Positions 16,989-36,464 of a stretch of 64,000 bases of DNA are shown here, in pieces. Position 1 is the first letter of the stretch. Each line of letters starts with the position of its first letter. The DNA comes from Bacteroidota bacterium. GTDB lineage: Bacteria; Bacteroidota; Bacteroidia; Bacteroidales; SKPS01. The stretch lies in assembly GCA_022709695.1 (NCBI GenBank), contig JAKLII010000002.1, positions 90,955 through 154,954 on the forward strand. Direction: 5' to 3'. The notes below the pieces were generated by a model. That model searched no databases, was not told the origin of the DNA, and saw nothing but the letters and a program-made list of their open reading frames with translations. The translations under genes and the position numbers were made by a program.

Positions 16989-17723
16989 CTACTTTTTAAC
17001 CACCAGCTTGCGGGTGAGGATCGTCTGCTGATTCCGTATCAGGGAGTAAAAATAGATACCGCTTTCAACAGTTGAAAGATCAAAGTCGATCAGTCCTTCA
17101 CCCGGCGGAAGGGGAGCTTCACGAACCGTCCGACCGGCAAAATCCCTGAGAGTCAGCACCAGGGGATTTTTATCGTCTTGATGGGTATAGGCGAATGTAA
17201 CTTTATCAGTGGCCGGATTTGGGTAAGCGGCTGTTATTTCCGGGACCACGGAGGGGAAGTCATTTACCCCTATTGTACCGGTAAAACGTACCGTAAAGGA
17301 GATCGTATCATTGGTATTGGCAACATTGAAGAAAGTGTACCTGATGATCGTAGTACCTGTGTTGTTCAGCGGATAATAATCACCTGTGAAACTTGTATCC
17401 CAGCCACCTCCGGCAGCAAGATTGACAGATCCTACAGATACCATCGTAGATCCACCATAGCAATTGCCTGCAAAGCAGAAAGTATTCGTGGAATTCAGTA
17501 CCGTGTATATCTCATCTTTGCGAACTTTCACCTCAACCGCAGCCGAACTGTTGTTAATAACCTTCGCATCCACGATAATCACGGTGTCAATCTTGCCGGA
17601 AACATCAAGCGTGGTTCCATTGAGAACCGCATTCCCGTGAAAGGTTACACTCAGGCTTTGTGCACCGGCACCCAACGAAAGAACTGAAAAGATGGCTGTA
17701 AACAGAATGGATAGTTTTCTCAT
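16989..17723 (-). CDS. Secreted protein with a T9SS C-terminal sorting domain, unknown function
   Basis: Signal peptide (LSLGAGAQS). Ig-like beta-rich body. The C-terminus YPNPATDKVTFAY...GIYFYSLIRNQQTILTRKLVVKK is a type-A T9SS CTD. Confidence 0.7.
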   Translation of the reverse strand: MRKLSILFTAIFSVLSLGAGAQSLSVTFHGNAVLNGTTLDVSGKIDTVIIVDAKVINNSSAAVEVKVRKDEIYTVLNSTNTFCFAGNCYGGSTMVSVGSVNLAAGGGWDTSFTGDYYPLNNTGTTIIRYTFFNVANTNDTISFTVRFTGTIGVNDFPSVVPEITAAYPNPATDKVTFAYTHQDDKNPLVLTLRDFAGRTVREAPLPPGEGLIDFDLSTVESGIYFYSLIRNQQTILTRKLVVKK

Positions 17724-23315: not shown

Positions 23316-25205
23316 ATGAAAACACTTATCACAATGACTGTTGCCTCCCTGTTGCTTTTCCTCACCTCCTGTAGCTCAACTTATCTGGCTACAGGAAGTG
23401 ATGATGTGTATTATACTCCCAACAGGAATGCAGAAACCACCGTGACTATTGTATCACCATCCACCGGGCAGAACAGTTATGATGTAACCGAAGGATCAAA
23501 ACAAGTCCAGAATGTTACCCCTGTTACATCCCCTGATCCGGAAAAGGATACGGTAGTAAGCGAGTATTATGTTGATGAAGAAGGCAATACCTATATAACC
23601 AACAATTACTACGGAGACGACTACGGCTACGACGATTATTACGACTATACCTACGCTTCCAGGATCCGCAGGTTCCACACAGGCTATTACACCGGTTTCG
23701 GATATTACCATAATTACTACACTGATCTGTATTGGTATACCTATGATCCTTTCTACTATGGAGTAAGCATTTATTACGGCTATCCCTGGTGGTACCCCTC
23801 CTATTACACCTGGTACAGGCCTTTTAACTGGTGCTGGGGATATGGGTACGGATACGGTTATTATCCCTTCTCGTATGGCTATTATCCCTGGTACTACGGA
23901 CCCGGTTATGGATACGGCTATTATGCCGGGTACTGGGATGGCTATTACGACGGCTACTGGGGTAACTACTATAATTATTACTATAACAGTTACGACGGAA
24001 CCAACGGTTATTACTACGGACCCCGCGATTATATCACTTCAGGCGATGGAACCGGAAGGAGTGACAATTCCTGGTTTGGATCAAAGTATGAACAGGCCAT
24101 TGCATCTGAAATCCGGGCAGTTCCCGAAACATCTGTCGGAAACATCAGTGAATCTCAAACACCAAACGGAAATGGCGGAAATACTGTAAGAACGGATCCC
24201 TCCGTGATCAGTTCCCAGGAAGATAAAGCTCCCGGGAACCAAAATGTACGGCCAGCTGCAACGGCACAAACATCTGAAGCCAACCAGACTGAATCAGCTA
24301 TGACCAACCAGCCGGCCGGTGAAACCCGCCAGGAAAAACCGCAGGGTGCACAGGCAGAGACAGCACCGGGAACCTCCCGTCAGGTTGCTACGACTCCAAA
24401 TGCGCAGGAGCAGGCGCCTGCCGTCAGGCCTCAGTACCAGAGACCGGTTACCAATACACCCGTAAGAACCAGGACCTACACCCCTCCGGTGAGCAACAAT
24501 CCAACGCCAACAAGGCAATATCCTGATCTTGGAAGGACAGAATCTGCAGGTGCATCACAGACTCCGGCTGCGAATCCTTCTCAAAGAGAACCACGTGCTG
24601 TTCAACCCGCTCAAAATGCACCAGCCACAACAAGGCCCGTCAGCACCGAACCGGTAAAACCCTATACAAAACCCAGAACCGAGAATGCTCCACCTACCTA
24701 CCGTCAGCCTGGGACTACCCAGGAATATAAGGCTCCGGGCAGCAACCAGGGAAGAGTAACTCCACAAAATAATCAAAACAAAACCTACACCAGGCCTTCC
24801 GCCGGCAACGATCAGCATAGCACCTATGGCAGGCCTTCCGGTTCAACCCCGGCAACCCCGGCACCGTCCAGAACCCAGCAGGGATACAGGCAGGAAAGCA
24901 GACCATCCCAGCCATACAATCCACCTGCCGTAAGGTCCAGGTCTGAATCATCCCCATCCTCCGGCAGCGGTTCATCGCGTCCATCCGGATCCAGCTACCA
25001 AAGTTCTCCCCGTTCCTCCGGAAACACCTCCGGCAGCCACTATTCCTCAGGAAGCTCATCCCGGTCTTCAGGTAGCAGCTATTCTTCCGGAAGCTCTTCC
25101 CGGTCATCCGGCAGCAGCTATTCCTCAGGCAGCTCCTCCCGGTCATCCGGTAGCAGCTCCTCTCGTTCTGGCGGAAGCTCATCATCCTCCGGGCGCAGAA
25201 ACTAA
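23316..25205 (+). CDS. Low-complexity lipoprotein: a Tyr/Gly/Trp-rich zone, a Pro/Thr/Gln-rich zone and a Ser-rich repeat tail; unknown function
   Basis: 629 aa. It has a signal peptide with a lipobox (LLLFLTSCSS). In residues ~95-238 I count about 54 Tyr in about 144 residues (YGYGYGYYPFSYGYYPWYYGPGYGYGYYAGYWDGYYDGYWGNYYNYYYN). This is followed by roughly 300 aa rich in P/T/Q/A/R, then the tail (YSSGSSSRSSGSS)x3. It is the only long ORF at this position. The frame is supported by an ordinary N-terminal ~90 aa and by in-frame repeats. Confidence 0.6.
   Translation: MKTLITMTVASLLLFLTSCSSTYLATGSDDVYYTPNRNAETTVTIVSPSTGQNSYDVTEGSKQVQNVTPVTSPDPEKDTVVSEYYVDEEGNTYITNNYYGDDYGYDDYYDYTYASRIRRFHTGYYTGFGYYHNYYTDLYWYTYDPFYYGVSIYYGYPWWYPSYYTWYRPFNWCWGYGYGYGYYPFSYGYYPWYYGPGYGYGYYAGYWDGYYDGYWGNYYNYYYNSYDGTNGYYYGPRDYITSGDGTGRSDNSWFGSKYEQAIASEIRAVPETSVGNISESQTPNGNGGNTVRTDPSVISSQEDKAPGNQNVRPAATAQTSEANQTESAMTNQPAGETRQEKPQGAQAETAPGTSRQVATTPNAQEQAPAVRPQYQRPVTNTPVRTRTYTPPVSNNPTPTRQYPDLGRTESAGASQTPAANPSQREPRAVQPAQNAPATTRPVSTEPVKPYTKPRTENAPPTYRQPGTTQEYKAPGSNQGRVTPQNNQNKTYTRPSAGNDQHSTYGRPSGSTPATPAPSRTQQGYRQESRPSQPYNPPAVRSRSESSPSSGSGSSRPSGSSYQSSPRSSGNTSGSHYSSGSSSRSSGSSYSSGSSSRSSGSSYSSGSSSRSSGSSSSRSGGSSSSSGRRN
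25041..25157 (+). repeat. Three tandem 39-bp in-frame units encoding YSSGSSSRSSGSS
   Basis: The units are 25041-25079, 25080-25118 and 25119-25157. They differ only at a few mostly synonymous positions. Degenerate Ser-rich copies flank them. Confidence 0.8.
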
Positions 25206-25239: not shown

Positions 25240-26691
25240 ATGAAGAATAAAGCTTTAATCATCGCCATGCTGGGTATGTTACCCCTTTTTACCTTTGCCC
25301 AGCTTCCGTTTGATGCCTTAAGATTTTCAATGACAGGCCCGGGAGGTACTGCCCGGTACCTCGCCACCGCCGGAGCCTTCGGAGCCATCGGGGCTGATTT
25401 TTCAACCCTCAGTGCCAATCCCGCCGGAATCGGGCTCTTCAGAACTACTGAATTTACCCTAACACCGGGATTAACCTATAATTCAGCCACTGCAAATTAT
25501 GGTGGAATGCTCACCGAAGATGACAAATACAAGCTGAATATGCACAATGCCGGAGTGGTATTTGCTTTTGGGAACAGATCCGTTAAAAATGGTAGCTGGA
25601 AAAGATTTCAGTTTGGGTTTGGAATGAACCAGCTGGCTGATTTTTCAGGCAACACCACCATCGAAGGTGATAATCCGTATGGTTCAATCCTGATGGAGTA
25701 TCAGAAAAAAGCTGCCGGAATTGCTCCTAAAAACCTTGATCTTTATGACACCAAGCTGGCATGGGACACTTACCTGTTTCCGGATACATTTTCAGGATCG
25801 AATGGAATGATCCAATATACCTCTGCCATTCCAAATGGTGGTGTAAGGCAAATGAAGTACATTGAAAGAAAGGGAGGTATGAACGAGGTTGTCCTGAGCC
25901 TGGGTGGAAACTATAACGACAGGATCTACCTGGGAGGCACCATTGGATTTCCCACCCTCCACTACCGGGAAGATGCCAGTTATCGTGAAGTGGATGCAGG
26001 AGATACCATTGCAACTTTCAAGTCATTGACCATCAATGATTACCTGAACACTTCGGGGAGTGGTATCAATTTCAAATTCGGAATCATTGCCAGGCCGTTC
26101 GACTGGATCAGGATCGGTGGCGCGATTCATACACCCACCTTTTTCAGTTTACACGATGAATACAGCAGGAGCATGAAGCACAGGAACGACGTTGGGCAGG
26201 AACTTTTTGCCAGCTCGCCGACAGGATACTATGATTACAGCCTTCGTACCCCTATGAAGGCCATTGTCAGCCTTGGTTTCATCATTGGTAAGTTTGGTTT
26301 TATAGGCATTGATTACGAAGCCGTCGACTATTCTGCCGCCAGGTTCGAGACCAAAAACGACCATTTTACTGATGTGAACAGGGTAATCCGCGAAGACTAC
26401 CATGAAGCTTCCAACCTTAGAATCGGTGGTGAGTTAAACCTCAATCCCATCCGCCTGCGTGCCGGTTACGCTCTTTATGGTTCACCCTATACCAATGGAC
26501 TCAACGATTTCGAAAAGAGCACCCTGGCATTTGGCCTTGGCTTCAAGGATAAGAACTACTTCCTGGATTTCTCCTGGGTGATGACCTCTTACGGTGAGAA
26601 CTATTACCTGTATGATCCGGAGATGGTTTTACCTGCGCAGATCGACAATATGTCAACAGGTATGATCATGACGCTGGGATTTAAATTGTAA
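25240..26691 (+). CDS. Outer-membrane beta-barrel protein (FadL/OMPP1-like)
   Basis: 483 aa with a signal peptide (LPLFTFAQ). The N-terminal motif GGTARYLATAGAFGAIGADFSTLSANPAGIGLF resembles the FadL/PorV-superfamily hatch region. It shows an alternating beta-strand pattern throughout. It lies 35 nt downstream of the low-complexity lipoprotein gene. Confidence 0.5.
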   Translation: MKNKALIIAMLGMLPLFTFAQLPFDALRFSMTGPGGTARYLATAGAFGAIGADFSTLSANPAGIGLFRTTEFTLTPGLTYNSATANYGGMLTEDDKYKLNMHNAGVVFAFGNRSVKNGSWKRFQFGFGMNQLADFSGNTTIEGDNPYGSILMEYQKKAAGIAPKNLDLYDTKLAWDTYLFPDTFSGSNGMIQYTSAIPNGGVRQMKYIERKGGMNEVVLSLGGNYNDRIYLGGTIGFPTLHYREDASYREVDAGDTIATFKSLTINDYLNTSGSGINFKFGIIARPFDWIRIGGAIHTPTFFSLHDEYSRSMKHRNDVGQELFASSPTGYYDYSLRTPMKAIVSLGFIIGKFGFIGIDYEAVDYSAARFETKNDHFTDVNRVIREDYHEASNLRIGGELNLNPIRLRAGYALYGSPYTNGLNDFEKSTLAFGLGFKDKNYFLDFSWVMTSYGENYYLYDPEMVLPAQIDNMSTGMIMTLGFKL

Positions 26692-26763: not shown

Positions 26764-28956
26764 TTATTTCACAGTGAACTTGATGGTGCGGGAGGTTCCG
26801 CCAAAATCGGCCCTTAAAATATACACTCCGGCAGGCAGGCTGGTCACATCAACCTGATGCTGATGTTCTCCAACGGGCATGGTTCCAAGTTCGGCCGAAG
26901 AGACTCTTTCGCCAAGGAGGTTGAGGACTTCCATCCTAACATTGCAGGATTTCACCAGCATAAACTCAATGTTGGTAACATTCTCGGCAGGGTTGGGATA
27001 GAGGGCAGCAAAGTCTCCGTTCAGCTGTTGCTCCTCGATAGCATCTACAAAACCAAGATGGTATTCAGCAGCATTTAAAATAGGCCTCTGGTTCGGATCA
27101 GAATTGTATTTCTGCACAAGGAAGACCACTTTCAGACGGTTGGGGTTGATCCCGGAAGGTACCGTATAGGTATACTGCTTATTGAAAATGTCATTTTTAT
27201 TAACCGTTGCAGGAATTACGCCTGAGGTGCCCCACGGACCACCCAGCATTGCGCGTAATACATGCCTGTGCTTGTACCCAATAATGGGATTGCCGGCACC
27301 ATAATAAGGGTGACCTGCAACGGTGTTGTAATAGTTTGCCTGATTATAGGCAGAACCGGTTCCGGTAACACTGTCCTCAACGATGTATGCATTTACCCTG
27401 AAATCTCCTGAAGCACCAGAATAGAATTTGGCGGACATTTCAATGGTGATCACCTTTCCGGCGCCATAGGTCGCAGTTCCGGTTACAAGAACAGGTACAA
27501 TGTCATTCAGCCTTTCAGCGGTTTTTGCTGCCCAAACCGACCTTGACATCCCAACAGCTGCCTGATCAGGGAAAAGCACCCTGTCAACATAGCCGTTTGG
27601 ATATCCCTGCGCATAGGCACTGTTTACGGCGTTGCCATCGGTAAACGCCATTCCGTCGCCATTATGAATAGCTACACCTATGGTTTTTCCGGGGTTATTG
27701 GCCAGAATGCCAGCCAGTACAACGGATCCATCAGGGCAATACTGGCACCATGCTCCGGTAGCCTGCTCAATTACAACTGTTTTTGCTACGATCGTATCGA
27801 AAATTGAAACCACCTTGCTCAGGGTGTCATTTGTGTTGTCAGCGTCCGTCTGTCCATTTGGACTTGCAGCCCAGACCTTGATGGTGAAGTTTCCGGTGGT
27901 TGAGGGGGTCCAGTTAATATTATGGGTAAAGGCATAGGTCTGATTGGTCGTAGTGGACAATCCTGTTACATTCTGGGTCTGGACAGGACCGTTATCGACC
28001 TGGTAGTTAAGGCTGACATCGTTCAGGGTGATCAGTCCCTTATTCTTGATTACACCCTTGATCTGCATCGGATTATTAACCACTGCATTGGTTGGGAAAG
28101 TAAGGCTCTCCATGGCTACATCGAATGAATCGGGCTGAATGGAAGCCAGGTCATAGCCAAAAAGGACGGCATTCTGAACGACACCGCCGAGTGTAACCGT
28201 ACCAGGAATAAGATTGGGGGTGATAAACAGGCCACCACCACTGGTAGCTCCTGTGGGATTTACATCGTCGGCGGTGTAATGCATCAGACCTGTTGACAAA
28301 CCAGTTGTCACACTAATCTGGTGGATTTCAGCAGGAAAACTTCCGCCGGTTATAATCCAAATGTATGGACCACCTGGAGTAACCGTATCGAACGCAGAAC
28401 CAGCCATAGAGGTCTGGCCATGGACTGTAGAGAGAATAGTTTGCATCACAGCACCTGTAGTTTTATTGAGGAGCACCAGATTTGAGCCCCAGGCCCCTAC
28501 CCAGAGCCCATCGTTGATCGGGTCGTAGCAGATGTTACGTGCAGTTACACCAGTTGCAGAAGAAGGGATTGTGATAGTACTCACCAATGTCTGAGTGCTA
28601 AAATCCATCTTATAGATGGCTGATGCATTGGCACCTCCGTAAAAATAGGTCCCGTCATATGCAAGATCCCTGATAGCAGAAACTCCGGTAATTTTGAAAG
28701 AAGATACGAGTACACCGGCGGTAGTATATTTCCAGATGGTATCGCCATTCCACTTTGTAACATAGATATGGGTTCCATCGGATTCAGCACCATAGGATCC
28801 ACTTTGTGAGATCGTAGTATGGGCAAACTGTGCAACCCATGCTTTTGAGCTTACGGGTTTAATGCCATTGAAAGGCACATTGGAGGATTCAGACTGGGCA
28901 TTCAGCAGCATGCCGAAAACCGTTACCAAGAGCAAGGTACATAGAATTCTTTTCAT
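26764..28956 (-). CDS. T9SS cargo protein: N-terminal beta-propeller-like region, CARDB-like Ig domain, CxxC thioredoxin-like (Omp28-related) domain, T9SS CTD
   Basis: 730 aa with a signal peptide (MLLNAQS). CARDB-like segment (MQIKGVIKNKGLITLNDVSLNYQVDNGPV...NTNDT). Thioredoxin-like segment VVIEQATGAWCQYCPDG...GYPNGYVDR...YKHRHVLRAMLGGPWG. CTD LYPNPAENVTNIEF...GVYILRADFGGTSRTIKFTVK. Confidence 0.65.
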   Translation of the reverse strand: MKRILCTLLLVTVFGMLLNAQSESSNVPFNGIKPVSSKAWVAQFAHTTISQSGSYGAESDGTHIYVTKWNGDTIWKYTTAGVLVSSFKITGVSAIRDLAYDGTYFYGGANASAIYKMDFSTQTLVSTITIPSSATGVTARNICYDPINDGLWVGAWGSNLVLLNKTTGAVMQTILSTVHGQTSMAGSAFDTVTPGGPYIWIITGGSFPAEIHQISVTTGLSTGLMHYTADDVNPTGATSGGGLFITPNLIPGTVTLGGVVQNAVLFGYDLASIQPDSFDVAMESLTFPTNAVVNNPMQIKGVIKNKGLITLNDVSLNYQVDNGPVQTQNVTGLSTTTNQTYAFTHNINWTPSTTGNFTIKVWAASPNGQTDADNTNDTLSKVVSIFDTIVAKTVVIEQATGAWCQYCPDGSVVLAGILANNPGKTIGVAIHNGDGMAFTDGNAVNSAYAQGYPNGYVDRVLFPDQAAVGMSRSVWAAKTAERLNDIVPVLVTGTATYGAGKVITIEMSAKFYSGASGDFRVNAYIVEDSVTGTGSAYNQANYYNTVAGHPYYGAGNPIIGYKHRHVLRAMLGGPWGTSGVIPATVNKNDIFNKQYTYTVPSGINPNRLKVVFLVQKYNSDPNQRPILNAAEYHLGFVDAIEEQQLNGDFAALYPNPAENVTNIEFMLVKSCNVRMEVLNLLGERVSSAELGTMPVGEHQHQVDVTSLPAGVYILRADFGGTSRTIKFTVK

Positions 28957-28991
28957 AGAACTTGTGTTGTTTTGGTTAATAAATGATTGTA

Positions 28992-31010
28992 TTACTGAAT
29001 AATGAGTTTTGATGATTCGGAGTGGTTAAAACCGGAGAGGCGAACAAAATACAAACCCTTAGCCAGGTTGGTCAGATCAAATTCATTTTGAAAAACCCCT
29101 ACTGAAGTGGCATTTCTGGATAAGGTGCGGATGGTCTTTCCTGAAGAAGAGATCAGCTCCAACGTAACCATGCCCGGTTCTGCAACGAGGTACTGTACCT
29201 GGGTCGATTCTTTTGCAGGGTTCGGGAACAGTCCAAGGATATGTTTCTGTGAGGTGCTTTCATCAATGCTGTTGGTTTGGGTGGAAATGGCTGACTGCAA
29301 CACCTTTTTGGTTGCATCATCCTGTACAAAAACCACCACCTGCAGGTTGCTGAAGTTTTCGATATTGTTGGTTGTGGGGAATGTATATGTACGTGTGATG
29401 GTTTTAAAAACCGCCTTCTGGAGCTGCCCGAGATTTACCCCTGCTGCATCAGGGATGAATTTGCGGAAGGTGTTGTAGAAGATGGTTTCACCGTTGGATC
29501 CCACATTGCCGGTTGTGGTTTTTTCCACTACGGCAACCCTCAATACCAGGGTACCGGAAGTATAATTCTCAAAGGGCAGCACCGATGCTGTTACCGAAAA
29601 TGTGTTTCCAACCCTGGTGTGGGTAGGATTGAACATCATATAGGATTTGTCCCAGAGGTCATTATACTGGATTGTATCGATATAGGTAGGGTCAACGATG
29701 TTGCCGTTCACATACATATCCGGTAGTGAATCAACCTCGTAGTAGGTAGCCCGTGTACCCCCTTCGGCGGTATAGTAAGGATCGCCTGCATCGGGGTAGT
29801 TCATGGCGTATTTGATTAAGGCGTAATCATTCGGATATTTATCCAGAACGGATTTAAGGTTGATGTTGCCGTCTTTACAGGGGATGCAGGATGAAGAGGT
29901 AAACTCCTCAAAGAGCCGGAGCTTGGGAGTAAAGGCATTGGAAACCTCCACAATCTTGAACATGGTATCGTTGCTGTGATTTTCATCGCCACCCCCATTG
30001 ATGTTGGAAGCCCAGTATTTAAAGTGGTACACTCCAGTATCAGGGGGCATCCAGATGCTGTCGTGGATAAACCACTCTTCACCATAGGCCGGAATGTCAT
30101 AGGCAGCACCTGTAAGGTTACAGGTTTTCACAGGGCCATTGTTCACGCTGTAGTTCATATCATAACTGGTAACTGCAGTTCCGGTGTAATTTTTTACTTT
30201 TCCTTTCACATCAAAGGGGCCTGCATTGAGGATCACGAAGTTGCTCATCTGCAACCAGGAAACTCCAAGATCGCGGGAGGGGGGAGAGCCTTTGATGAAT
30301 GTATAGTATTTATTATCTACGGCCGTTTTGCTTTGACCGGCCACGGTGCCAAGATTAGGGGAACCGTTAACCATGACAGCAGTAGTTCCGTTTATCTGTA
30401 ACCCAATGGTCAGGGTAGGCTGGCAGAAGCCCTTGTCTGAACAACGCTGATCGACCACATAGATGTTGTTGGTAGTCTCCTCAAGCACGATACTGTAATA
30501 AAGATAGCACCACTGGGTATTATATCCAGGGATGTTATAGGTGTTGAACTGGATCCAGTGCTGCCGGTTGGGAGCGACCCCGAAGGTTTTGGTTACAATA
30601 CGGTCGTTGCAGTTTGGTCCGCCGGTCCAGGAAACTCCCCATACGCAAACCGATTTGTCGGGGATCCCGGGATCCGGTAAAATGTTATTGGAGGAACCCG
30701 GAGGGCTTCCGGCAGTAGTTGTAAAGGTTAAAACCCCGGTATTTGATACCAGGTACTGGGTTACAGGAGCCCCGTTGAACTGGAAGGTAAAAGGGATGTT
30801 CTGCACGGCAGTCCATGCAGGAGAAGCATTCATAGGGTCAATATTCGTCCAGCCCGGCATCAGTCCGTCTCCGAAGGGTTCCTCGGTATTGGCATTCAGG
30901 TTACCGGGGTTACCGGATGGATTGATGTTTGCAGGAATGTAATAATACTGGGACCATACACTTCCCAACAGTAACACATTCATTGCCAGAAAAAGTAATA
31001 ATCTTTTCAT
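28992..31010 (-). CDS. T9SS cargo protein: unknown N-terminal domain, CARDB-like domain, CxxC thioredoxin-like (Omp28-related) domain, T9SS CTD
   Basis: I set the start at MKRLLLFLAMNVLLLGSVWSQ (31010). The ORF-track start at 31049 adds 13 non-signal residues. CARDB-like segment (FDVKGKVKNYTGTAVTSYDMNYSVNNGPV...HSNDT). Thioredoxin-like segment LRLFEEFTSSSCIPCKDG...LPDMYVNG. CTD LFPNPAKESTQVQY...GLYFVRLSGFNHSESSKLIIQ. Confidence 0.65.
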   Translation of the reverse strand: MKRLLLFLAMNVLLLGSVWSQYYYIPANINPSGNPGNLNANTEEPFGDGLMPGWTNIDPMNASPAWTAVQNIPFTFQFNGAPVTQYLVSNTGVLTFTTTAGSPPGSSNNILPDPGIPDKSVCVWGVSWTGGPNCNDRIVTKTFGVAPNRQHWIQFNTYNIPGYNTQWCYLYYSIVLEETTNNIYVVDQRCSDKGFCQPTLTIGLQINGTTAVMVNGSPNLGTVAGQSKTAVDNKYYTFIKGSPPSRDLGVSWLQMSNFVILNAGPFDVKGKVKNYTGTAVTSYDMNYSVNNGPVKTCNLTGAAYDIPAYGEEWFIHDSIWMPPDTGVYHFKYWASNINGGGDENHSNDTMFKIVEVSNAFTPKLRLFEEFTSSSCIPCKDGNINLKSVLDKYPNDYALIKYAMNYPDAGDPYYTAEGGTRATYYEVDSLPDMYVNGNIVDPTYIDTIQYNDLWDKSYMMFNPTHTRVGNTFSVTASVLPFENYTSGTLVLRVAVVEKTTTGNVGSNGETIFYNTFRKFIPDAAGVNLGQLQKAVFKTITRTYTFPTTNNIENFSNLQVVVFVQDDATKKVLQSAISTQTNSIDESTSQKHILGLFPNPAKESTQVQYLVAEPGMVTLELISSSGKTIRTLSRNATSVGVFQNEFDLTNLAKGLYFVRLSGFNHSESSKLIIQ

Positions 31011-31166
31011 ATTTCGGAAATTTTGGGGTGCAATGTACAAATAATACACATCAACGATACAAAAAAATCAAAATTAAAAAGCACTGTAAATCAATACATA
31101 ATTTTAGCAAATGGGTTTAGTGACCCGGAAAGGAAACTGCACCCGTTTCATCATTCATTAAATCTC

Positions 31167-31174
31167 TATATTTG
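31167..31174 (+). promoter_or_regulatory. Candidate -7 box (TATATTTG) for the TlpA-like/barrel/Omp28-like operon
   Basis: Exact TAnnTTTG match 42 nt upstream of ATG 31216. Upstream there is only an imperfect TTTC at 17-nt spacing. Confidence 0.3.
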
Positions 31175-31215
31175 TCAGGAATTTCAAACCCGCTACCCTT
31201 AAAGAACAGAATAAA

Positions 31216-31722
31216 ATGAGACAATCACTGTTTATGCTTATGGTGCTTTTAGTCTGGGCAGGTAACCTGAATGCCCAGGATACCACAAAAGTACAAACAT
31301 CCGACATTCCCTCTGCGGAAATCCGAACCCTCGACGACAAAATTGTGAACGCGAGGGACATTTTAAATGACACTGTACCGATAGTTGTTTCATTCTGGGC
31401 AACATGGTGCAAACCCTGCATCAAGGAACTTACAGCGATCAATGATGAGATGGATACCTGGAAGGAGGAAGTTCCGTTCAGGATGGTGGCCGTATCCATT
31501 GATGATGCAAGAACAACCCACATGGTTAAGAACCTGGTAAACAGCAAGGGATGGACCTTTGAAGTGTACCTTGACCGCAACAGTGATCTTAAAAAGCTGA
31601 TGAATGTAGCCCAGCCGCCCCACATCTTCATTATATACAAAGGGAGGATCGTATATCAGCACACCTCTTATGCAGAGGGAGATGAAGAAGCATTGTTTGA
31701 AGAGTTAAAGAAATATAGGTAG
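31216..31722 (+). CDS. TlpA/ResA-like periplasmic thiol:disulfide oxidoreductase (thioredoxin fold)
   Basis: 168 aa with a signal peptide (VWAGNLNAQ). The motif VVSFWATWCKPCIKELTAIN carries a WCxxC active site, in the TlpA/AhpC-TSA-like layout. Confidence 0.8.
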   Translation: MRQSLFMLMVLLVWAGNLNAQDTTKVQTSDIPSAEIRTLDDKIVNARDILNDTVPIVVSFWATWCKPCIKELTAINDEMDTWKEEVPFRMVAVSIDDARTTHMVKNLVNSKGWTFEVYLDRNSDLKKLMNVAQPPHIFIIYKGRIVYQHTSYAEGDEEALFEELKKYR

Positions 31723-31756
31723 GACTTTTTTTTTATCAACCAAAATTCACTGATTT

Positions 31757-33418
31757 ATGCCGGCAAGATACTGGATGGCACTGATATTTCTGATGGTATT
31801 TACATCGGGATTGAAAGCACAGTTAACAGGGGGAACCATCAAGGGGAGTTTTCAAACTGATTTTCAGTACTATCAGGATGATTCCATACTGGGAATCAAT
31901 GATTCGACATTGCAGGGAAGGAGAACCGGATCGAACACCTTTCTGAATCTTACCTACAGCAGCAATAATTTAGAGGCCGGGTTAAGGATGGAGAGTTTCC
32001 TTCCGTCGATGACCGGATATGACCAGCGGTACACCGGGGCCGGCATTCCGTACAAGTATCTGAGGTTCCATGATGACATCTGGGATATAACAGCAGGTAA
32101 CTTTTATGAGCAGTTCGGTAACGGGATGGTATTCAGAAGCTACCAGGACTGGACTCTTGGGATCGACAATTCCGTAGAGGGAATCCGGATCAAGAGCAAG
32201 CCCTTTAAAGGGGTGTTTATCACGGCTATATCCGGTGTACAACGGTATTACTGGGATCGGTGGGACAAGGATGATGACCGTGGGATCATTACAGGAGCAG
32301 ATGCCGAAGTTGATCTGAATGATGCTCTTCCATTTTTTGGTAAGAAAGTCAAAGTGATTGCCGGGGGAAGTTTTATCACAAAAAGCCAGAAAGACAATCA
32401 TCCCGTTTACAAGGTACCCAAACAGGTGGCCGCCTTTGCGGGGAGGCTGAATCTTTCTTATGGCCCGGTAACGCTTCTGGGTGAGTATGCCTATAAAATC
32501 AACGATCCATCGGCAGAAAACGGAATGATCTACAAACCAGGAGAGGCCATTTTCCTGCAGGCTTCCTATGCCGTTAAAGGATTTTCTTTCTCTGCCGGGG
32601 TAAAGCGGCTTGACAACATGGGTTTCAGGAGCGACCGTAATGCAGGATTGAATGATCTGACGATTAATTATCTGCCTTCCATTACCAAACAACACATTAA
32701 CAGTTTGCCTGCAAAATATCCCTATGCCACTCAGGTTCAGGGAGAAATGGGATTTTCCCTCAACCTTGGTTACAAAATCAAAAAGGGGACATGGCTGGGG
32801 GGTAAATATGGCACTGACCTGTCGGCAACCTTTTCAAGACTCACAGATATCACCCGTCTTCCTTTAGACAGCATTACTCCGGTCGGACAGGCGGGCACCC
32901 TTGGATATACCACCGATTTTTTCAGGAGCGGTGAAAAATTCTTCGAAGATATCTCTCTTGAACTGCAGCGGAAAATCACCAAAGACCTGAAAATATCCTT
33001 TATCTATGCCTGGATATTTTACAATATCGGAGTAATTGAAGGGCATCTGGGCGAAGAGAATGTGGTTTCGCACAATGCGGTGGCAGATATCACCTGGAAA
33101 GTCACCTCCAGAAAAGCACTGCGGTTTGAAGTACAACACCTTCTTACCCATGAGGATGACGGTGACTGGATGGCAGGGCTGATAGAATTCACCCATCACG
33201 GATTTTTCGCCTCGGTGAGCGACCAGTGGAATTACGGCAACCCGGAGGCTTCAAAACAGATCCATTACCTGATGGTTGCATGCGGATTGTCCAAAGGTGC
33301 CACCCGGATTGCAGCCTCATACGGCAGGCAGAACGACGGGATTCTCTGCATTGGAGGCGTTTGCAGGTACGTTCCTGCTATCAGTGGTTTCTCAGTAACC
33401 CTTACTTCATCATTTTAA
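31757..33418 (+). CDS. Outer-membrane beta-barrel protein of unknown function (I recall similar proteins annotated DUF6029; unverified)
   Basis: 553 aa with a signal peptide (SGLKAQ). It shows an alternating aromatic/glycine strand pattern and a terminal Phe (VTLTSSF), typical of BAM substrates. Confidence 0.45.
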   Translation: MPARYWMALIFLMVFTSGLKAQLTGGTIKGSFQTDFQYYQDDSILGINDSTLQGRRTGSNTFLNLTYSSNNLEAGLRMESFLPSMTGYDQRYTGAGIPYKYLRFHDDIWDITAGNFYEQFGNGMVFRSYQDWTLGIDNSVEGIRIKSKPFKGVFITAISGVQRYYWDRWDKDDDRGIITGADAEVDLNDALPFFGKKVKVIAGGSFITKSQKDNHPVYKVPKQVAAFAGRLNLSYGPVTLLGEYAYKINDPSAENGMIYKPGEAIFLQASYAVKGFSFSAGVKRLDNMGFRSDRNAGLNDLTINYLPSITKQHINSLPAKYPYATQVQGEMGFSLNLGYKIKKGTWLGGKYGTDLSATFSRLTDITRLPLDSITPVGQAGTLGYTTDFFRSGEKFFEDISLELQRKITKDLKISFIYAWIFYNIGVIEGHLGEENVVSHNAVADITWKVTSRKALRFEVQHLLTHEDDGDWMAGLIEFTHHGFFASVSDQWNYGNPEASKQIHYLMVACGLSKGATRIAASYGRQNDGILCIGGVCRYVPAISGFSVTLTSSF

Positions 33419-33435
33419 AAGACCGGATCGAAATT

Positions 33436-34281
33436 ATGAAAATAAGAAATTCCATTTTTCTGACGTCAGGCCTGATGGCTGTTGGAATTGCAGTGTTCTT
33501 TATGGCATGTGAGGTACTGGATGCCCCCTACAAAAAGGACAATATAGTGATCCAGAGCGAACGGAAGGTGTTGCTTGAGGATTACACCAGCCATGAGTGT
33601 GTGAATTGCCCTACTGCCGGAAAGGTCTCTCATGAACTTCTGGATATATACGGAGACAATGTGGTGGTTATAGCTGTACATGCAGGGCAATTATCTAAGA
33701 TACTGATACCTCCCTGTACCTATAATTTCACCACTGCTACGGGTGATCTCTGGTGTTCGTATTTTGAAGTGGAAAACCAGGGATTCCCCAATGGGCTTGT
33801 CAACCGGAAAGAGCGAAGTGGCAGCAAGATTATCCCTTACAACAACTGGTTTACGGTCGTAGCGGAGGAGCTGGCGCAACCAGCAGAGGCTGAATTATTG
33901 CTCGAAGCTGATTTCACTCCTTCCACGAGGGAAATCGAGGTGCAGTTTTCTTCCAACATCAAATCCCCGGTTCCGGGTGAAAAATATTATGTTACCATTG
34001 TCCTTACTGAGGACAGTATCATTAAACCACAGAAAAACAACAATGCCACTGTGGGTACAACACCTGTGATTATGGATTACAAGCACATGCATGTGCTCCG
34101 GACCAACATCACTGATCATTGGGGGCTGGAGGTTAATCCATCGATCATTGACACCCGGACTGTTAAAAGGACGCTGCCCGAAGGATACGATTATTTACCT
34201 GAGAAGTGTCATATCGTAGCCTTCATCAGCAATGCCAACAGGGAGGTGCTGCAGGCGGAGGAGATCAAACTTCTCCCGTAA
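33436..34281 (+). CDS. Omp28-related lipoprotein with a CxxC thioredoxin-like domain
   Basis: I set the start at ATG 33436 (MKIRNSIFLTSGLMAVGIAVFFMAC, signal peptide plus lipobox). The ORF-track start at 33226 overlaps the barrel gene. Motifs: VLLEDYTSHECVNCPTAG...FPNGLVNRKE...YKHMHVLRTNITDHWG. Confidence 0.65.
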   Translation: MKIRNSIFLTSGLMAVGIAVFFMACEVLDAPYKKDNIVIQSERKVLLEDYTSHECVNCPTAGKVSHELLDIYGDNVVVIAVHAGQLSKILIPPCTYNFTTATGDLWCSYFEVENQGFPNGLVNRKERSGSKIIPYNNWFTVVAEELAQPAEAELLLEADFTPSTREIEVQFSSNIKSPVPGEKYYVTIVLTEDSIIKPQKNNNATVGTTPVIMDYKHMHVLRTNITDHWGLEVNPSIIDTRTVKRTLPEGYDYLPEKCHIVAFISNANREVLQAEEIKLLP

Positions 34282-34313: not shown

Positions 34314-36464
34314 TTACCTGATAATATTCATCTCCTCGATCAGGTTTTTGGCGCCGGCAAATTTATCGATCACAAATAGGACGTAGCGGATATCGCATAC
34401 GATGGTTCGCTGCAATTTCGGGTCAAACTGCAGGTCGGAGCTCATTGCTTCGGAGTTACCATCGAATGCTGTACCGATAAGGTGGCCCTCGCCGTTGATC
34501 ACCGGGCTGCCTGAGTTACCACCGGTGATATCGTTATCTGTGAGGAAGCATACCGGCATTCTGCCATCCAGCCCATAGACCCCAAAATCCTTCTTTGCAA
34601 AGAGCTCTTTGAGTTTTGGGTGTACGTCAAACTCCTCATCTCCGGGAACTTCTTTCTCCATTACCCCATCAAGGTAGGTAAGATAATGGTAATGCACGGC
34701 ATCGCGGGGATCATAGGATAATACTTTTCCGTAGGTAACCCGCATGGAGGAGTTGGCATCGGGATAGTAGGGCCTGGTTTCATTCATTTCACGAATACCC
34801 TGAATATACAGACGGTTGGCATTGCGCAGTTTTTCATCGGTTTGGTGTTGCGCGGTGAGCACACCACGGTACATATCAAGCAGTTGCGACATTACCAGGT
34901 ATGCAGGATCTCCGGTGAGTTTTTTCACAGACGGTTTTTTCAGGAATGCCTGGAAATCCTCTTTAGAGGCAAAGATTGATTTTTTGAAGACGGCATCCGC
35001 ATATTTCTTCCAGTCGCCTTTGTACTTTTTATGCGCTTTCACAAGGAAGTCCGGTTTATAGTCGTCGGAAAGTCCGTTGAAGAGCTGTCCCATCATCGTG
35101 GCAAACAGGGCTTTTTCGATATTTACACTGAAGGCAGCGTACATTCCATCGGCCTGGGTTGACAGTGCCTGGGCAGCCTCTTTGGTGGATTTTCCTTCCT
35201 TGATGCTTCTGAGGAAAGAGGTGCTTTTATAGGCATTGAAAACCACCTTTGGATCTATGAATGATTCAAGAAAATATGCCAATACCTTTTCGTATTCATT
35301 CCGGGAGATGGTGCGGTAGGCTTCATTGATATCGGCAAGCACACTGCCGTAGGTTTTCTTTCTTTCCGGATCGGCATTCACCCATTCTGCGAATAACTTT
35401 TCCTGCTGTTGTTTCTGGTTCACCACGTCAAGGGCAATAAGTGCTTTACGCTGTTCGGCTGACTTTTTCCAGAAGTTACCGAGGTAGGCATAGGAATCAG
35501 CATACATGATTTTAAGTGCCTCATCTGCATCCATATAAGGTTTCATGGCATCCATCTTGGCCCGGCGGAGGTCACGGCCGGCGGGGTCTATCTGATCGAT
35601 ATTCAGTTGGATACCCTGGGAGGTACGGTAGCGGTCCGTAGCCCCCGGGAAGCCCCATATCATAGCAAAATCATTCTCATTCAATCCTTTAAGTGAAACC
35701 GGCAGGTAGTGTTTCGGGGTATAGGGGACATTTTCCTTTGCATAGGGAGCGGGTTTGCCATCGGGGCTGCAATAGACCCTGAAGAGGGTGAAATCACCGG
35801 TATGGCGGGGCCACATCCAGTTATCGGTATCTCCGCCAAATTTTCCGATTGAGGAAGGGGGGGCTCCCACCAGACGGACATCGAGAAAGACTTCATACAC
35901 ATAGAGGTAAAATTCACTTCCGGCGAACATCTCTTTTACTTCTGCCTCATAGTGGGTATCTTTAACGCTTTCTTCTTCAATAACTTCTATGTTGGCAGCA
36001 ATTACAGAATCCCTTTCGGCCATTTTCATGGAGGGTGTAACACCTTTCAGCACCCTGGCGGTTACATCATCAATACGCACCAGAAAGGAGGCTGTCTTTT
36101 TGGGATTTGGGAGCTCTTCCGAGGTTGAGTAAGCCCAGAAACCATCCTTCAGGTAGTTGGCGGAGGGAGTTGAGTGGTCCTGGATTTCACCGTATCCGCA
36201 ATGGTGGTTGGTGAGGAGGAGCCCTTTGGATGAGATTATTTCTCCGGTGCAGGAGCCACGGTCAAGAAGCACGATCGCATCTTTCAGGCTGCTCTTATTA
36301 ACGGCGTACAGCTCTTCAGGGGTAAGTTTAAGGCCGAGGCGCTGCATCTCAGCATAATTCTTTGAGAGAAGGAGCGGGATCCACATTCCCTCATCTGCTT
36401 TCAGGCGTATAAAAGGAGCAGAGAGCAGGGATACCAGCAACAAGAGAACCGTTATTTTTTTCAT
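34314..36464 (-). CDS. S46-family dipeptidyl-peptidase (DPP7/DPP11 type)
   Basis: 716 aa. ADEGMWIP directly after the signal peptide. Catalytic His context LLLTNHHCG. Catalytic Ser context ITGGNSGSPVINGEGHLIGTAFDGN. Confidence 0.9.
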   Translation of the reverse strand: MKKITVLLLLVSLLSAPFIRLKADEGMWIPLLLSKNYAEMQRLGLKLTPEELYAVNKSSLKDAIVLLDRGSCTGEIISSKGLLLTNHHCGYGEIQDHSTPSANYLKDGFWAYSTSEELPNPKKTASFLVRIDDVTARVLKGVTPSMKMAERDSVIAANIEVIEEESVKDTHYEAEVKEMFAGSEFYLYVYEVFLDVRLVGAPPSSIGKFGGDTDNWMWPRHTGDFTLFRVYCSPDGKPAPYAKENVPYTPKHYLPVSLKGLNENDFAMIWGFPGATDRYRTSQGIQLNIDQIDPAGRDLRRAKMDAMKPYMDADEALKIMYADSYAYLGNFWKKSAEQRKALIALDVVNQKQQQEKLFAEWVNADPERKKTYGSVLADINEAYRTISRNEYEKVLAYFLESFIDPKVVFNAYKSTSFLRSIKEGKSTKEAAQALSTQADGMYAAFSVNIEKALFATMMGQLFNGLSDDYKPDFLVKAHKKYKGDWKKYADAVFKKSIFASKEDFQAFLKKPSVKKLTGDPAYLVMSQLLDMYRGVLTAQHQTDEKLRNANRLYIQGIREMNETRPYYPDANSSMRVTYGKVLSYDPRDAVHYHYLTYLDGVMEKEVPGDEEFDVHPKLKELFAKKDFGVYGLDGRMPVCFLTDNDITGGNSGSPVINGEGHLIGTAFDGNSEAMSSDLQFDPKLQRTIVCDIRYVLFVIDKFAGAKNLIEEMNIIR

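Follow-up and report, generated by a model that had tools for sequence, protein, structure and literature searches.

The closest characterised relative of the protein module described here is hemin-binding protein 35 (HBP35, PG0616, PDB 5y1a) of P. gingivalis. HBP35 is a single-module protein, encoded alone, in which a thioredoxin-like domain with a CxxC motif and a beta-sandwich are followed by a T9SS CTD for cell-surface display. Its DTT-driven insulin-reductase activity outpaces that of E. coli thioredoxin and is lost in C48S/C51S, and the protein binds hemin (PMC2907840). Omp28 of P. gingivalis (PG2173; PF11551, NF033782, PDB 2r2c) is a lipoprotein described solely as an antigen or putative adhesin. 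The full-length protein keeps a CxxC (EEFTGQKCLNCP). Its crystal structure (2r2c) and the Pfam model cover the C-terminal part only, without the CxxC half, which is why neither reveals that Omp28 is thioredoxin-like. In the literature, we found no described link between HBP35 and the TlpA-barrel-Omp28 operon reported below.

The locus studied lies in a 64-kb window (the whole stretch of 64,000 nucleotides analysed) from an uncultured Bacteroidales bacterium. A first-pass annotation had noted five adjacent genes in a divergent pair, with a ~250-aa module common to A, B, and E. All five ORFs (5/5) are present, and the observation is confirmed:

Gene A: 26764..28956, minus strand; T9SS cargo protein of 730 aa (Pfam matches and independent profile).
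Gene B: 28992..31010 (ORF 28992-31049), minus strand; T9SS cargo protein (Por_Secre_tail, A-B alignment, profile).
Intergenic region: 31011..31215, no strand; 205 bp between the divergent genes (direct sequence reading).
Gene C: 31216..31722, plus strand; exported TlpA/ResA-like thioredoxin of 168 aa (Pfam, NCBIfam).
Gene D: 31757..33418, plus strand; DUF6029 outer-membrane beta-barrel of 553 aa with ~24 strands (Pfam, AF2).
Gene E: 33436..34281, plus strand; Omp28-family lipoprotein of 281 aa (Pfam, NCBIfam, AF2, Foldseek).

The ORF of gene B opens with GTG at 31049, and its true start is most likely the ATG at 31010 (MKRLLLF...). The intergenic region holds two tentative promoter elements, for which the Bacteroidetes-type -7 box consensus is TAnnTTTG. 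A sigma-70 scan of promoter motifs gave no enrichment.

31167-31174, plus strand: candidate -7 box TATATTTG of the plus-strand operon (weak evidence).
31069-31076, minus strand: candidate -7 box CAAAATTA, reverse complement TAATTTTG, of the minus-strand genes (weak evidence).

A and B had been proposed as T9SS cargo, and both match Por_Secre_tail, with 43.2 bits (A, cut-off 27) and 39 bits (B). Gene A also matches Pfam Omp28 (56.8 bits, cut-off 34.9) and CARDB (28.4 bits, cut-off 22.7). Its N-terminal domain is beta-propeller-like, the propeller-like matches being weak only. In gene B, the N-terminal domain is Cys-rich, of no recognised type, and gave no match to PDB sequences. The Ig region of B aligns with the CARDB domain of A, and its Pfam Omp28 score of 32.4 bits is slightly below the cut-off of 34.9. 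The signal peptides of A and C end in LNA, with cleavage before Q. The parts of A, B, and E that bear on the module are as follows:

Residues 284-380 of A, minus strand: CARDB Ig domain (Pfam CARDB).
27061-27822, minus strand: Omp28/HBP35-type module of A, residues ~379-632 (Pfam and profile).
26767-27003, minus strand: T9SS CTD of A (Por_Secre_tail).
27736..27747, minus strand: CxxC of A, C404-Q-Y-C407 in ATGAWCQYCP (aligned with the family CxxC).
29289-29921, minus strand: divergent Omp28-type module of B (profile 27.3 bits; A-B E 3e-29).
28995-29231, minus strand: T9SS CTD of B (Por_Secre_tail).
29877..29888, minus strand: CxxC of B, C388-I-P-C391 (ORF numbering) in FTSSSCIPCK (in register with the family CxxC).
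33508-33510, plus strand: lipobox Cys25 of E (lipobox FMAC).
33598..33609, plus strand: CxxC of E, C55-V-N-C58 in LLEDYTSHECVNCP (alignments, AF2 model).

A and E align by BLASTP with E 9e-10 over 261 columns, pairing the CxxC, GxPNGxVxR, and YKHxHVLR motifs. A and B align across CARDB, module, and CTD (E 3e-29), while B against E alone is weak (E 0.002). A profile made independently from lipoprotein homologues only, with A and B excluded, finds A with 92.9 bits (1e-30, profile positions 39-280) and B with 27.3 bits (1e-10, Z=1, profile positions 44-278), in both cases with the CxxC in register. The module similarity is not due to chance. The shared module is strong in A and E; in B it is full-length but weak, and B is a divergent copy. 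The Y-x-H-x-H-V-L-R and E-D-S motifs are missing from B, as was implied when late motifs were reported in two copies only.

The AF2 model of E (pLDDT 93.1) shows a thioredoxin-fold domain (residues 45-146) and a beta-sandwich (residues 152-278). The elements run b1, CxxC, a1, b2, a2, Pro118, b3, b4, a3, followed by the sandwich. The CxxC stands where helix 1 (helix 58-75) begins, which is the canonical active-site position, and the invariant Pro118 occupies the cis-Pro position (model and alignments). In an alignment of 123 sequences (120 homologues, E, and the modules of A and B), C55 is kept in 122/123 and C58 in 123/123. Both are invariant in a further alignment (A1), and the CxxC is present in 144/144 representatives clustered at 50% identity. 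Where lipoproteins are tandemly duplicated, at least one CxxC copy is always retained. The top Foldseek matches for E are HBP35 5y1a (E 2.6e-11), the thioredoxin-like DUF1223 protein 2axo, and 2r2c; DipZ C-terminal domains are also among its structure and sequence matches. The family profile covers the whole module in HBP35 (E 1.4e-5); in small thioredoxins, it matches the CxxC helix. The NCBI-curated 'Omp28-related selenoprotein' family matches the CxxC region of E with a sub-threshold score. HBP35 is a detectable homologue with insulin-reductase activity, and the earlier statement that the Omp28-related family has no assigned biochemical function has to be amended at the level of the superfamily.

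Gene E, with its real start at 33436, was described as a lipoprotein of the module alone, and the lipobox FMAC and a Pfam Omp28 score of 78.8 bits agree with this. Because it scores 145 bits against NCBIfam lipoprot_Omp28 (cut-off 150), it is annotated as 'Omp28-related', and a 100% identical protein from a Bacteroidales MAG carries the annotation 'Omp28-related outer membrane protein'. The lipoprotein export signal used for comparison is K-(D/E)2 (PMC5080379). The stretch D-K-I-E-x-P-Y that follows the lipobox Cys gives no clean match to it.

WCxPCxxE is the motif of the reductive TlpA/ResA/CcmG enzymes. Gene C, reported as a TlpA-like WCKPC protein, scores above the Pfam cut-offs for AhpC-TSA (51 bits), Redoxin (43.7 bits), and Thioredoxin_8 (34.6 bits). 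It is below the NCBIfam equivalog cut-offs, with ResA as the best match (64.6 vs 170; TlpA 37.1 vs 230, DsbE 33.2 vs 123). Both Cys and the Glu three residues past the second Cys are invariant in 75/75 operon homologues.

31408-31428, plus strand: active site of C, W-C65-K-P-C68-I-K-E71 (WCKPC motif).

Gene D is a barrel as reported (Pfam DUF6029, E 1e-171; AF2 pLDDT 91.1, pTM 0.84). It is not a passive neighbour, as it has its own invariant Cys pair in loop L12:

33332..33379, plus strand: loop L12 of D, invariant hairpin C531-I-G-G-V-C536-R-x-V-P-A (alignments, AF2).

Both cysteines are invariant in 81/81 and 67/67 sequences, and L12 is the most conserved barrel segment, with a mean top-residue frequency of 0.86. 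The same hairpin is found in the P. gingivalis DUF6029 protein. This invariant C-x-G-G-V-C hairpin is a new finding. Strand parity in the model predicts an extracellular position for it. Foldseek of D gave generic large barrels only, the FimD pore being the best (TMq 0.49).

The core unit is a three-gene operon of TlpA-like protein, DUF6029 barrel, and Omp28 lipoprotein, a widespread and previously undescribed gene set. Among the 80 best DUF6029 loci, TlpA is upstream in 72/72 testable loci and Omp28 downstream in 73/73, on the same strand and with tight spacing. The barrel occurs in at least 586 species genomes, and the arrangement spans Lentimicrobiaceae, Marinilabiliales, Prolixibacteraceae, Flavobacteriales, Saprospiraceae, and Porphyromonas. 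Of the five-gene unit first proposed, the three plus-strand genes are fixed in evolution. The two T9SS proteins are accessory; module-bearing T9SS cargo lies in or beside the operon in ~14/80 loci, usually right before tlpA and on its strand, and is missing from 66/80. Neither a variable CxxC, nor a non-thioredoxin fold, nor a lack of co-occurrence elsewhere was found.

Small T9SS Cys-pair proteins come after omp28 in P. gingivalis and two other genomes (L081, L086). That cargo of either kind, module-bearing or small, recurs next to the operon is a further new observation. One protein of the window is possibly a distant member. It matches the profile of the small-protein family with E 3e-14, and its Cys pair is kept in 10/11 homologues; in P. 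gingivalis and L086, homologues directly follow omp28.

16989..17723, minus strand: candidate distant member, small T9SS cargo of 244 aa with a C-F-A-G-N-C pair (Por_Secre_tail 42 bits).

We infer that a thiol-disulfide relay is the best reading of these data. The probable role of the gene set is in thiol chemistry at the outer membrane, and the relay may cross this membrane. Whether the plus-strand genes are an envelope thiol-disulfide oxidoreductase operon with its working end at the outer membrane is, in our judgement, evenly balanced. An inner-membrane CcdA/DsbD-type transporter, encoded elsewhere, would keep the exported thioredoxin C reduced, and reducing equivalents would go from C to the CxxC of lipoprotein E. 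E would be the fixed partner of the 24-strand barrel D, in a physical complex. Presumptive clients would be the invariant hairpin cysteines of the barrel and Cys pairs in proteins exported by the T9SS, in this genome the HBP35-like A and B, in which the thioredoxin-like module shared with E would reach the cell surface preceded by variable binding domains. E, A, and B would be redox-active, and electrons would flow in this direction up to the surface. The earlier interpretation of an extracytoplasmic relay reaching the surface is partly supported.

Several points stand against the relay. The hairpin is predicted to be extracellular; therefore, the periplasmic TlpA could not reach it directly. 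No CcdA/DsbD candidate is present in the 64-kb window or among the conserved flanking genes, and one genome (L083) has DUF6029 and Omp28 without an adjoining TlpA. Lipoprotein E has no clean export signal after its lipobox and could face either side of the membrane. We know of no redox character for the C-[GVP]-N-C dipeptide. The numerous invariant polar residues in the beta-sandwich (E192, D193, Q199, Y215, H219, R222) suggest more than simple disulfide exchange, namely a ligand site.

A rival reading is heme or thiophilic-metal capture and import, which we consider rather unlikely. The Cys pairs and the conserved His/Tyr motif of the sandwich would be ligands and not redox centres, with A, B, and possibly E binding the ligand and the DUF6029 barrel as channel. 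TlpA would only keep the binding thiols reduced, as it does for those of the copper chaperone Sco. His53 and His82 flank the CxxC, the conserved barrel loops L3, L6, L7, and L12 resemble a defined binding site, and there are weak sequence matches to copper-handling thioredoxin-like proteins (ScsC-type 4gxz, 6nen). Partner T9SS proteins elsewhere have Cleaved_Adhesin domains, like gingipains and hemagglutinins. HBP35 binds hemin via M135-P344, not via the CxxC, and the hbp35 mutant grows poorly without hemin (PMC2907840). The proposed heme ligands H204/H206 (PMC2907840) align with Y-x-H-x-H-V-L-R, the family's most conserved sandwich motif. However, this hemin binding was seen only in a gel peroxidase stain, its ligand residues are candidates, and B keeps the CxxC yet lacks the H-x-H motif. 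The barrel lacks a TonB-box and a plug domain and, by Foldseek, shows no specific structural likeness to known heme/metal transporters. The position of the CxxC is exactly the catalytic one of a thioredoxin fold, with the cis-Pro loop kept, and HBP35 is catalytically active. Moreover, the operon is frequent among free-living Bacteroidia of sediments and digesters, and its conserved neighbours include neither a regulator nor another heme/metal gene.

It is quite improbable that the Omp28-type modules serve surface adhesion or act as receptors and that the Cys pairs of module and barrel form structural disulfides, the TlpA-like gene being a general periplasmic folding/repair factor co-transcribed by happenstance. 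Such a role was the first proposal for P. gingivalis Omp28, Pfam describes Omp28 as a putative surface adhesin or receptor, and Omp28 came down with host smooth-muscle cells in a pull-down (PMC9722745). A, B, and their counterparts in other genomes have adhesin-like domains (CARDB, Cleaved_Adhesin, MAM), and in the AF2 model the two barrel Cys are opposed across a short hairpin, a geometry fit for a staple disulfide. Yet the CxxC heads helix 1 of a thioredoxin fold that has a conserved cis-Pro loop, an arrangement that is catalytic and not structural; the HBP35 cysteines are catalytic, and duplicated lipoproteins do not lose the motif altogether. The 72/72 linkage to a reductase-type thioredoxin is unexpected for a bystander, and L12 is highly conserved, whereas the outer loops of adhesins and porins are usually variable.

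That the five genes are chance neighbours sharing the module by ancestry only is extremely improbable: T9SS genes are missing from most loci and the flanks in this window are unrelated housekeeping genes, but the order, strand, and spacing of C-D-E, kept in every testable locus across many lineages, effectively refute chance for the core, and module-bearing T9SS genes lie beside it (14/80) far above random-neighbour frequency.

The relay reading can be set against known systems. C has the fold, export signal, and WCxPCxxE active site of TlpA/ResA/CcmG (DsbE) and, like them, is in an operon with a presumed client. It differs in scoring below every equivalog cut-off, in having no adjoining cytochrome c maturation or Sco/Cox genes, and in its presumed client, an outer-membrane lipoprotein. 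DsbD/DipZ and CcdA follow the same logic, as Cys pairs in separate domains or proteins act in succession to bring reducing power through a membrane to acceptors of thioredoxin-like type. The inner-membrane protein DsbD is alpha-helical, whereas here a beta-barrel with one loop Cys pair would act, and transfer is hypothetical.

LptD-LptE and MtrB-MtrA/C resemble D as large plug-less barrels (24-26 strands) with an adjoining partner gene, and a partner could sit in or on the barrel; a D-E complex is hypothetical. MtrB and LptD are among the Foldseek matches of D, with generic similarity (TM 0.28-0.40). MtrCAB carries electrons across the outer membrane, but D has no hemes and no LPS-transport domains. 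DUF1223 (2axo, Atu2684), the second-best structural match of E (E 3.9e-9), likewise combines a thioredoxin-like CxxC domain with a beta-rich domain after it, and Pfam DUF1223 matches the CxxC region weakly. It is proteobacterial, has no assigned function, is not an outer-membrane lipoprotein, and lacks a barrel or TlpA partner.

HBP35 shares with A and B the module, the terminal T9SS CTD, and surface display, and its motif FTAEWCGYCP closely resembles ATGAWCQYCP of A, although A against HBP35 is not significant pairwise (E 0.49). A and B have additional domains (propeller-like, unknown, and CARDB); E, unlike HBP35, is a lipoprotein without CTD. E is a member or close relative of the P. gingivalis Omp28 family (against 2r2c, E 1.6e-11; with the family profile, 5.5e-31), and both proteins are lipoproteins. 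The barrel-Omp28 pair is kept in P. gingivalis as well, where 19 nt separate omp28 from an upstream DUF6029 gene with the same Cys hairpin.

The five genes were found exactly where the first-pass annotation had placed them:

A: 26764-28956, minus strand, T9SS cargo with Omp28, CARDB and Por_Secre_tail matches, all above the Pfam cut-offs
B: 28992-31010/31049, minus strand, T9SS cargo with Por_Secre_tail above the cut-off and Omp28 just below it
C: 31216-31722, plus strand, TlpA-like thioredoxin with AhpC-TSA, Redoxin and Thioredoxin_8 matches and a WCKPC site
D: 31757-33418, plus strand, DUF6029 barrel (E-value 1e-171)
E: 33436-34281, plus strand, Omp28-family lipoprotein (Omp28 78.8 bits, lipobox Cys25)

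A and B are separated by 35 nt, C and D by 34 nt, and D and E by 17 nt. TAnnTTTG is the Bacteroidetes-type promoter motif, and one weak candidate for such a box per direction can be read in the 205-bp divergent spacer. A scan of 26.5-34.5 kb for sigma-70 promoters and terminators, which is uninformative for Bacteroidota, gave no enrichment over shuffled sequences. Gln directly follows the predicted signal peptidase I site in A (NA/Q), B (WS/Q), C (NA/Q) and D (KA/Q; the slash marks cleavage). Homologues of C and D likewise keep it behind the signal peptide, in agreement with the Bacteroidetes "Q-rule", by which Gln follows the signal peptidase I cleavage site. A Bacteroidales MAG encodes a protein with 100% identity to E, under the annotation "Omp28-related outer membrane protein". 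The nearest related locus, among the best 80 of at least 586, belongs to a Lentimicrobiaceae MAG.

Several features surround the cluster. An S46 family dipeptidyl-peptidase gene (34314-36464, minus strand, E-value 9e-229) is convergent with E, and this adjacency is not conserved in other loci. GC skew is negative at 1-26 kb, positive at 28-54 kb and negative beyond 54 kb; its cumulative minimum lies inside the five-gene cluster, which could point to a replication origin, a rearrangement or a join made in assembling the MAG. On the plus strand, 23316-25205 encodes a predicted lipoprotein of 629 aa (LFLTSC) of extreme low complexity. Its first half is rich in Tyr/Gly/Trp, and its tail is rich in Ser/Gly/Pro/Thr/Gln and contains SSGSSSRSSGSSY repeats; Pfam and NCBIfam searches gave no match. 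Directly 3' of it, 25240-26691 (plus strand, 483 aa) encodes a signal peptide and a barrel-like sequence with no Pfam match and a far sub-threshold NCBIfam BamG-like match (24.8 bits, cut-off 250). The two may be another lipoprotein-barrel pair.

The ~250-aa module with a CxxC that had been noticed by eye in A, B and E is real, as judged from pairwise alignments and a clean profile. A and E align over 261 columns (E-value 9e-10), and A and B align across CARDB, module and T9SS C-terminal domain (CTD) with an E-value of 3e-29; B against E alone is weak (0.002). The clean profile, built from 93 lipoprotein homologues only with A and B left out, gave 92.9 bits for A and 27.3 bits for B; both matches take in almost the full module, and the CxxC stays in register. 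The B module is a divergent copy, which retains the CxxC and the GxP-loop Pro and has lost E-D-S and Y-x-H-x-H-V-L-R. With Pfam PF11551 (Omp28, cut-off 34.9), E (78.8 bits) and A (56.8 bits) score above and B (32.4 bits) below the cut-off. With NCBIfam NF033782 (lipoprot_Omp28, cut-off 150), E narrowly misses at 145 bits, followed by A with 61.7 and B with 17.3 bits. E also matches the solved Omp28 domain 2r2c by sequence (E-value 1.6e-11), by family profile (5.5e-31) and by Foldseek (2.1e-6); A alone against 2r2c is not significant (0.15).

The targeting signals of the three copies fit their predicted destinations. E has a lipoprotein signal (FFMA-C25), and the lipobox is conserved in 109 homologues. 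A and B have signal peptidase I sites and a CTD and hence are not lipoproteins; their Por_Secre_tail matches (43.2 and 39 bits, respectively) are both above the cut-off. A PDB sequence search with the N-terminal domain of A gave marginal designed-propeller matches only, and with that of B it gave nothing.

An AlphaFold2 model of E on the homologue alignment is confident (pLDDT 93.1, pTM 0.86). It contains strand 45-51, C55-x-x-C58, helix 58-75, strand 76-82, helices 101-115 and Pro118, followed by strand 119-122, strand 132-134, helix 135-146 and a beta-sandwich (152-278). Residues 45-146 thus have the order b-a-b-a-b-b-a. In this model they adopt the thioredoxin fold that the first-pass annotation had expected; the CxxC, where helix 1 begins, and the Pro both occupy canonical active-site positions. 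Pro118 is present in 123/123 sequences immediately before strand 119-122 and is a candidate cis-Pro. In the family profile, C55 and C58 match the CxxC of the thioredoxins 1nho and 1fo5. Since 2r2c and the Pfam model span only residues ~100-278, the thioredoxin nature of the Omp28 family was not evident before.

Foldseek with the E model returned HBP35 (5y1a) first (E-value 2.6e-11), the thioredoxin-like DUF1223 protein 2axo second and then 2r2c; DipZ is also among the matches. The family profile matches HBP35 over the entire module (E-value 1.4e-5); with small thioredoxins the match covers the CxxC helix. In P. gingivalis, HBP35 lies on the cell surface as T9SS cargo (PMC2907840). With DTT, the recombinant protein reduced insulin faster than E. 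coli thioredoxin, and the C48S/C51S variant abolished this activity (PMC2907840). According to earlier work as cited in the same paper, hbp35 complemented an E. coli dsbA mutant (PMC2907840). Because HBP35 is active and homologous, the Omp28/HBP35 superfamily has one biochemically characterised member, and the earlier statement that the Omp28-related family lacks assigned biochemistry has to be corrected. A and B have the layout of such cargo, namely a signal peptide, a thioredoxin-like CxxC module and a CTD. With their binding domains they are HBP35-type proteins.

The CxxC is kept throughout the family. In an alignment of 120 homologues, E and the A and B modules (123 sequences), C55 is present in 122 and C58 in all 123. 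Invariant positions in the curated alignment are C25 (the lipid anchor), C55, C58, P118, R124, W138, Q199, G230 and Q273. The module profile matches 14,827 protein clusters at 50% identity (E-value up to 1e-3), and all 144 newly returned top representatives of these clusters have the CxxC at this site. Full-length P. gingivalis Omp28 reads EEFTGQKCLNCP there. An NCBI-curated "Omp28-related selenoprotein" family (NF045500) matches the CxxC region of E below threshold. Tandem-duplicated forms sometimes lose the CxxC in the first copy and never in both. Such tandem lipoproteins of ~510-550 aa are L025:9672-11291 (a related locus) and the cluster representatives P0241-P0249, P0258, P0280 and P0301; in several of them, the first copy has no CxxC (e.g., LEFYTGHLDASAP) and the second copy has one.

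W-C-x-P-C-x-x-E is a mark of reductive TlpA/ResA/CcmG enzymes. C is an exported thioredoxin fold with Pfam matches above the cut-off and the active site W64-C65-K-P-C68-I-K-E71; in its homologues, both Cys and the Glu are invariant (75/75). C scores below every equivalog cut-off (ResA 64.6/170, StoA 49.9/210, TlpA 37.1/230 and DsbE 33.2/123 bits) and is thus a family member and not the orthologue of a studied enzyme. A peroxiredoxin reading, after the top Pfam name AhpC-TSA, was ruled out because the site is WCxPC and not the peroxidatic PxxxT/SxxC. No polytopic PC-motif protein that could be a CcdA/DsbD for C was found within the window or among the conserved neighbours.

D matches Pfam PF19494 (DUF6029) over its full length with 572.5 bits (cut-off 27). 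The AlphaFold2 model (pLDDT 91.1) is a barrel of ~24 strands with a terminal Phe. Foldseek gave generic large barrels and no close or specific relative, the best being the FimD pore (TMq 0.49). C531 and C536 are the sole conserved cysteines of D, both of them invariant in 81/81 as well as in 67/67 sequences, and lie within C-x-G-G-V-C-R-x-V-P-A; the same hairpin in Porphyromonas reads NCSGGVCRVVPE. In the model they oppose each other across a short hairpin (528-532/535-539) between strand 23 and the last strand. Counted from a periplasmic N-terminus, the strands are joined by turns of 2-5 residues (two of 11) on one side and by loops of 7-43 residues on the other. By strand parity, the Cys hairpin would be the last extracellular loop, L12. 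Mean conservation is highest in L12 (0.86), followed by L3 (0.82) and L6 (0.78), and the strands average 0.64. Such conservation of loops over strands speaks for a fixed partner or a defined site and not for a general porin. The sole paper found to mention DUF6029 speculated on polysaccharide export and suggested a Wzi-like similarity by HHpred (PMC9603273). Wzi-like proteins are not among the top Foldseek matches of D, and the export role was dropped, as the flanks of the 80 loci show no conserved OPX or Wz genes.

A search with D, in which each GTDB species was represented by one genome, retrieved the related loci; a relative is encoded in at least 586 genomes, and the best 80 were examined. 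A TlpA-like gene lies immediately upstream of the barrel on the same strand in all 72 testable loci, and an Omp28 lipoprotein gene immediately downstream, again on the same strand, in all 73 testable ones. The co-occurrence of TlpA, barrel and Omp28 genes proposed by the first-pass annotation therefore extends well beyond this genome, and chance adjacency of C-D-E is excluded. The loci come from Lentimicrobiaceae, Marinilabiliales, Prolixibacteraceae, Marinifilum, Draconibacterium, Flavobacteriales, Saprospiraceae and MAGs labelled Chlorobiota. The triad is kept in the more distant loci L081/L082 and L086, and one genome (L083) has the barrel-lipoprotein pair without an adjacent TlpA. In P. 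gingivalis, omp28 starts 19 nt downstream of the DUF6029 gene. Its short contig (L085) reads as follows:

3-206: DUF6029 gene
226-1098: omp28
1126-1848: gene of a 240-aa protein that has a Cys pair and weakly matches the T9SS CTD

From this synteny, the core is C-D-E, with D-E as the tightest pair. Clustering of flanking genes in the 80 loci gave no conserved CcdA/DsbD, regulator or anything redox-related. The commonest extra neighbour, in 44/80 loci, encodes a type I phosphomannose-isomerase-like protein and directly precedes the tlpA-like gene (e.g., L035:6227-7249); the window lacks it.

T9SS cargo also recurs beside the operon. Large module-bearing proteins adjoin it in 14/80 loci, mostly on the same strand and directly upstream of tlpA. 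Seven of eight checked have Por_Secre_tail, and their N-terminal domains differ from protein to protein (Cleaved_Adhesin, MAM, CARDB). The eighth, from L025, lacks a CTD and consists of a tandem Omp28 duplication. Partner proteins in seven other loci share the A/B layout of signal peptide, CxxC module and CTD. Another neighbour that recurs is small T9SS cargo, ~240 aa long and marked by a conserved C-x(3-4)-C pair. It was found in 10/80 loci, eight of which also have a large module protein. It directly follows omp28 in P. gingivalis, L081 and L086. These neighbourhoods indicate that a periplasmic reductase, an outer-membrane pair and Cys-bearing surface cargo travel together in evolution. The window holds a homologue of the small cargo:

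16989-17723: minus strand, small T9SS cargo homologue of 244 aa (Por_Secre_tail 42 bits; C-F-A-G-N-C pair)

This gene is ~9 kb from the cluster, beside an OstA/LptD-N-like gene.

We prefer to read C-D-E, with A and B, as a thiol-disulfide relay, and give this reading an even chance. Its basis is the fold, the motif positions, their invariance, the conserved operon and the homology to an active enzyme. A putative CcdA/DsbD encoded elsewhere would feed C, C would reduce the CxxC of E, and E would work with D. The clients would be the Cys hairpin of D and the Cys pairs of T9SS cargo. We infer the activity, the direction of flow, a D-E complex and the topology from this basis.

The main rival is capture and import of a ligand, heme or metal. 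HBP35 binds hemin, via M135-P344, and has a role in heme-limited growth (PMC2907840). Its H204/H206 align with the family motif Y-x-H-x-H-V-L-R, and A and E have the H-x-H, which B lacks. We consider this rival unlikely. A purely structural or adhesin role is very unlikely, as it fits poorly with a CxxC of catalytic-site type, the fixed linkage to a reductase and the hyper-conserved loop.

In an extension of the thiol-disulfide relay, DUF6029 and Omp28 would together be a beta-barrel counterpart to DsbD and conduct thiol-disulfide exchange through the outer membrane; we regard this as unlikely. The periplasmic TlpA would reduce the CxxC of the lipoprotein, which would be docked in or on the barrel and would exchange with the Cys hairpin on the extracellular side. 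The hairpin would then recharge surface T9SS-anchored HBP35-type modules and small Cys-pair proteins. If E faced outward or lay in the barrel lumen, reducing power would thus be carried across the outer membrane to the surface HBP35-type modules. Anaerobic Bacteroidota would then have a cell-powered extracellular disulfide reductase, which would explain the catalytic activity of surface HBP35. K-(D/E)2 is a lipoprotein export signal (PMC5080379). The residues after the lipid Cys of E are D-K-I-E-x-P-Y, acidic and without a clean match to this signal.

The operon is very common in Bacteroidia (barrel in at least 586 species genomes), and its barrel-Omp28 pair is found in P. gingivalis, a pathogen that is genetically tractable. 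There, the parts have been known as no more than an antigen (Omp28), an uncharacterised barrel and a T9SS cargo. Three points make up a testable model of redox chemistry that takes place at the outer membrane or crosses it. By the structural model, Omp28 would be the half of a thioredoxin-fold enzyme that was missing; a barrel having an invariant Cys hairpin is its constant partner; and the reductase is predicted to be co-transcribed. The model proposes a function for DUF6029 and PF11551 and may be relevant to the virulence of P. gingivalis and to how it acquires heme. Database annotations already name the parts as Omp28-related, DUF6029 and TlpA family. Our literature search returned no description of the operon, the barrel Cys hairpin, Omp28 as a thioredoxin-fold protein or the Omp28-HBP35 homology.

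To our knowledge, extracytoplasmic thiol-disulfide systems end in the periplasm, and we know of no answer to how a thioredoxin-like protein outside the outer membrane, such as HBP35, is recycled. The present system would be of the extracytoplasmic thiol-disulfide kind with an unusual outer-membrane architecture, testable in P. gingivalis. Catalytic disulfide exchange has been demonstrated for HBP35, whereas for E, A and B it is predicted by homology.
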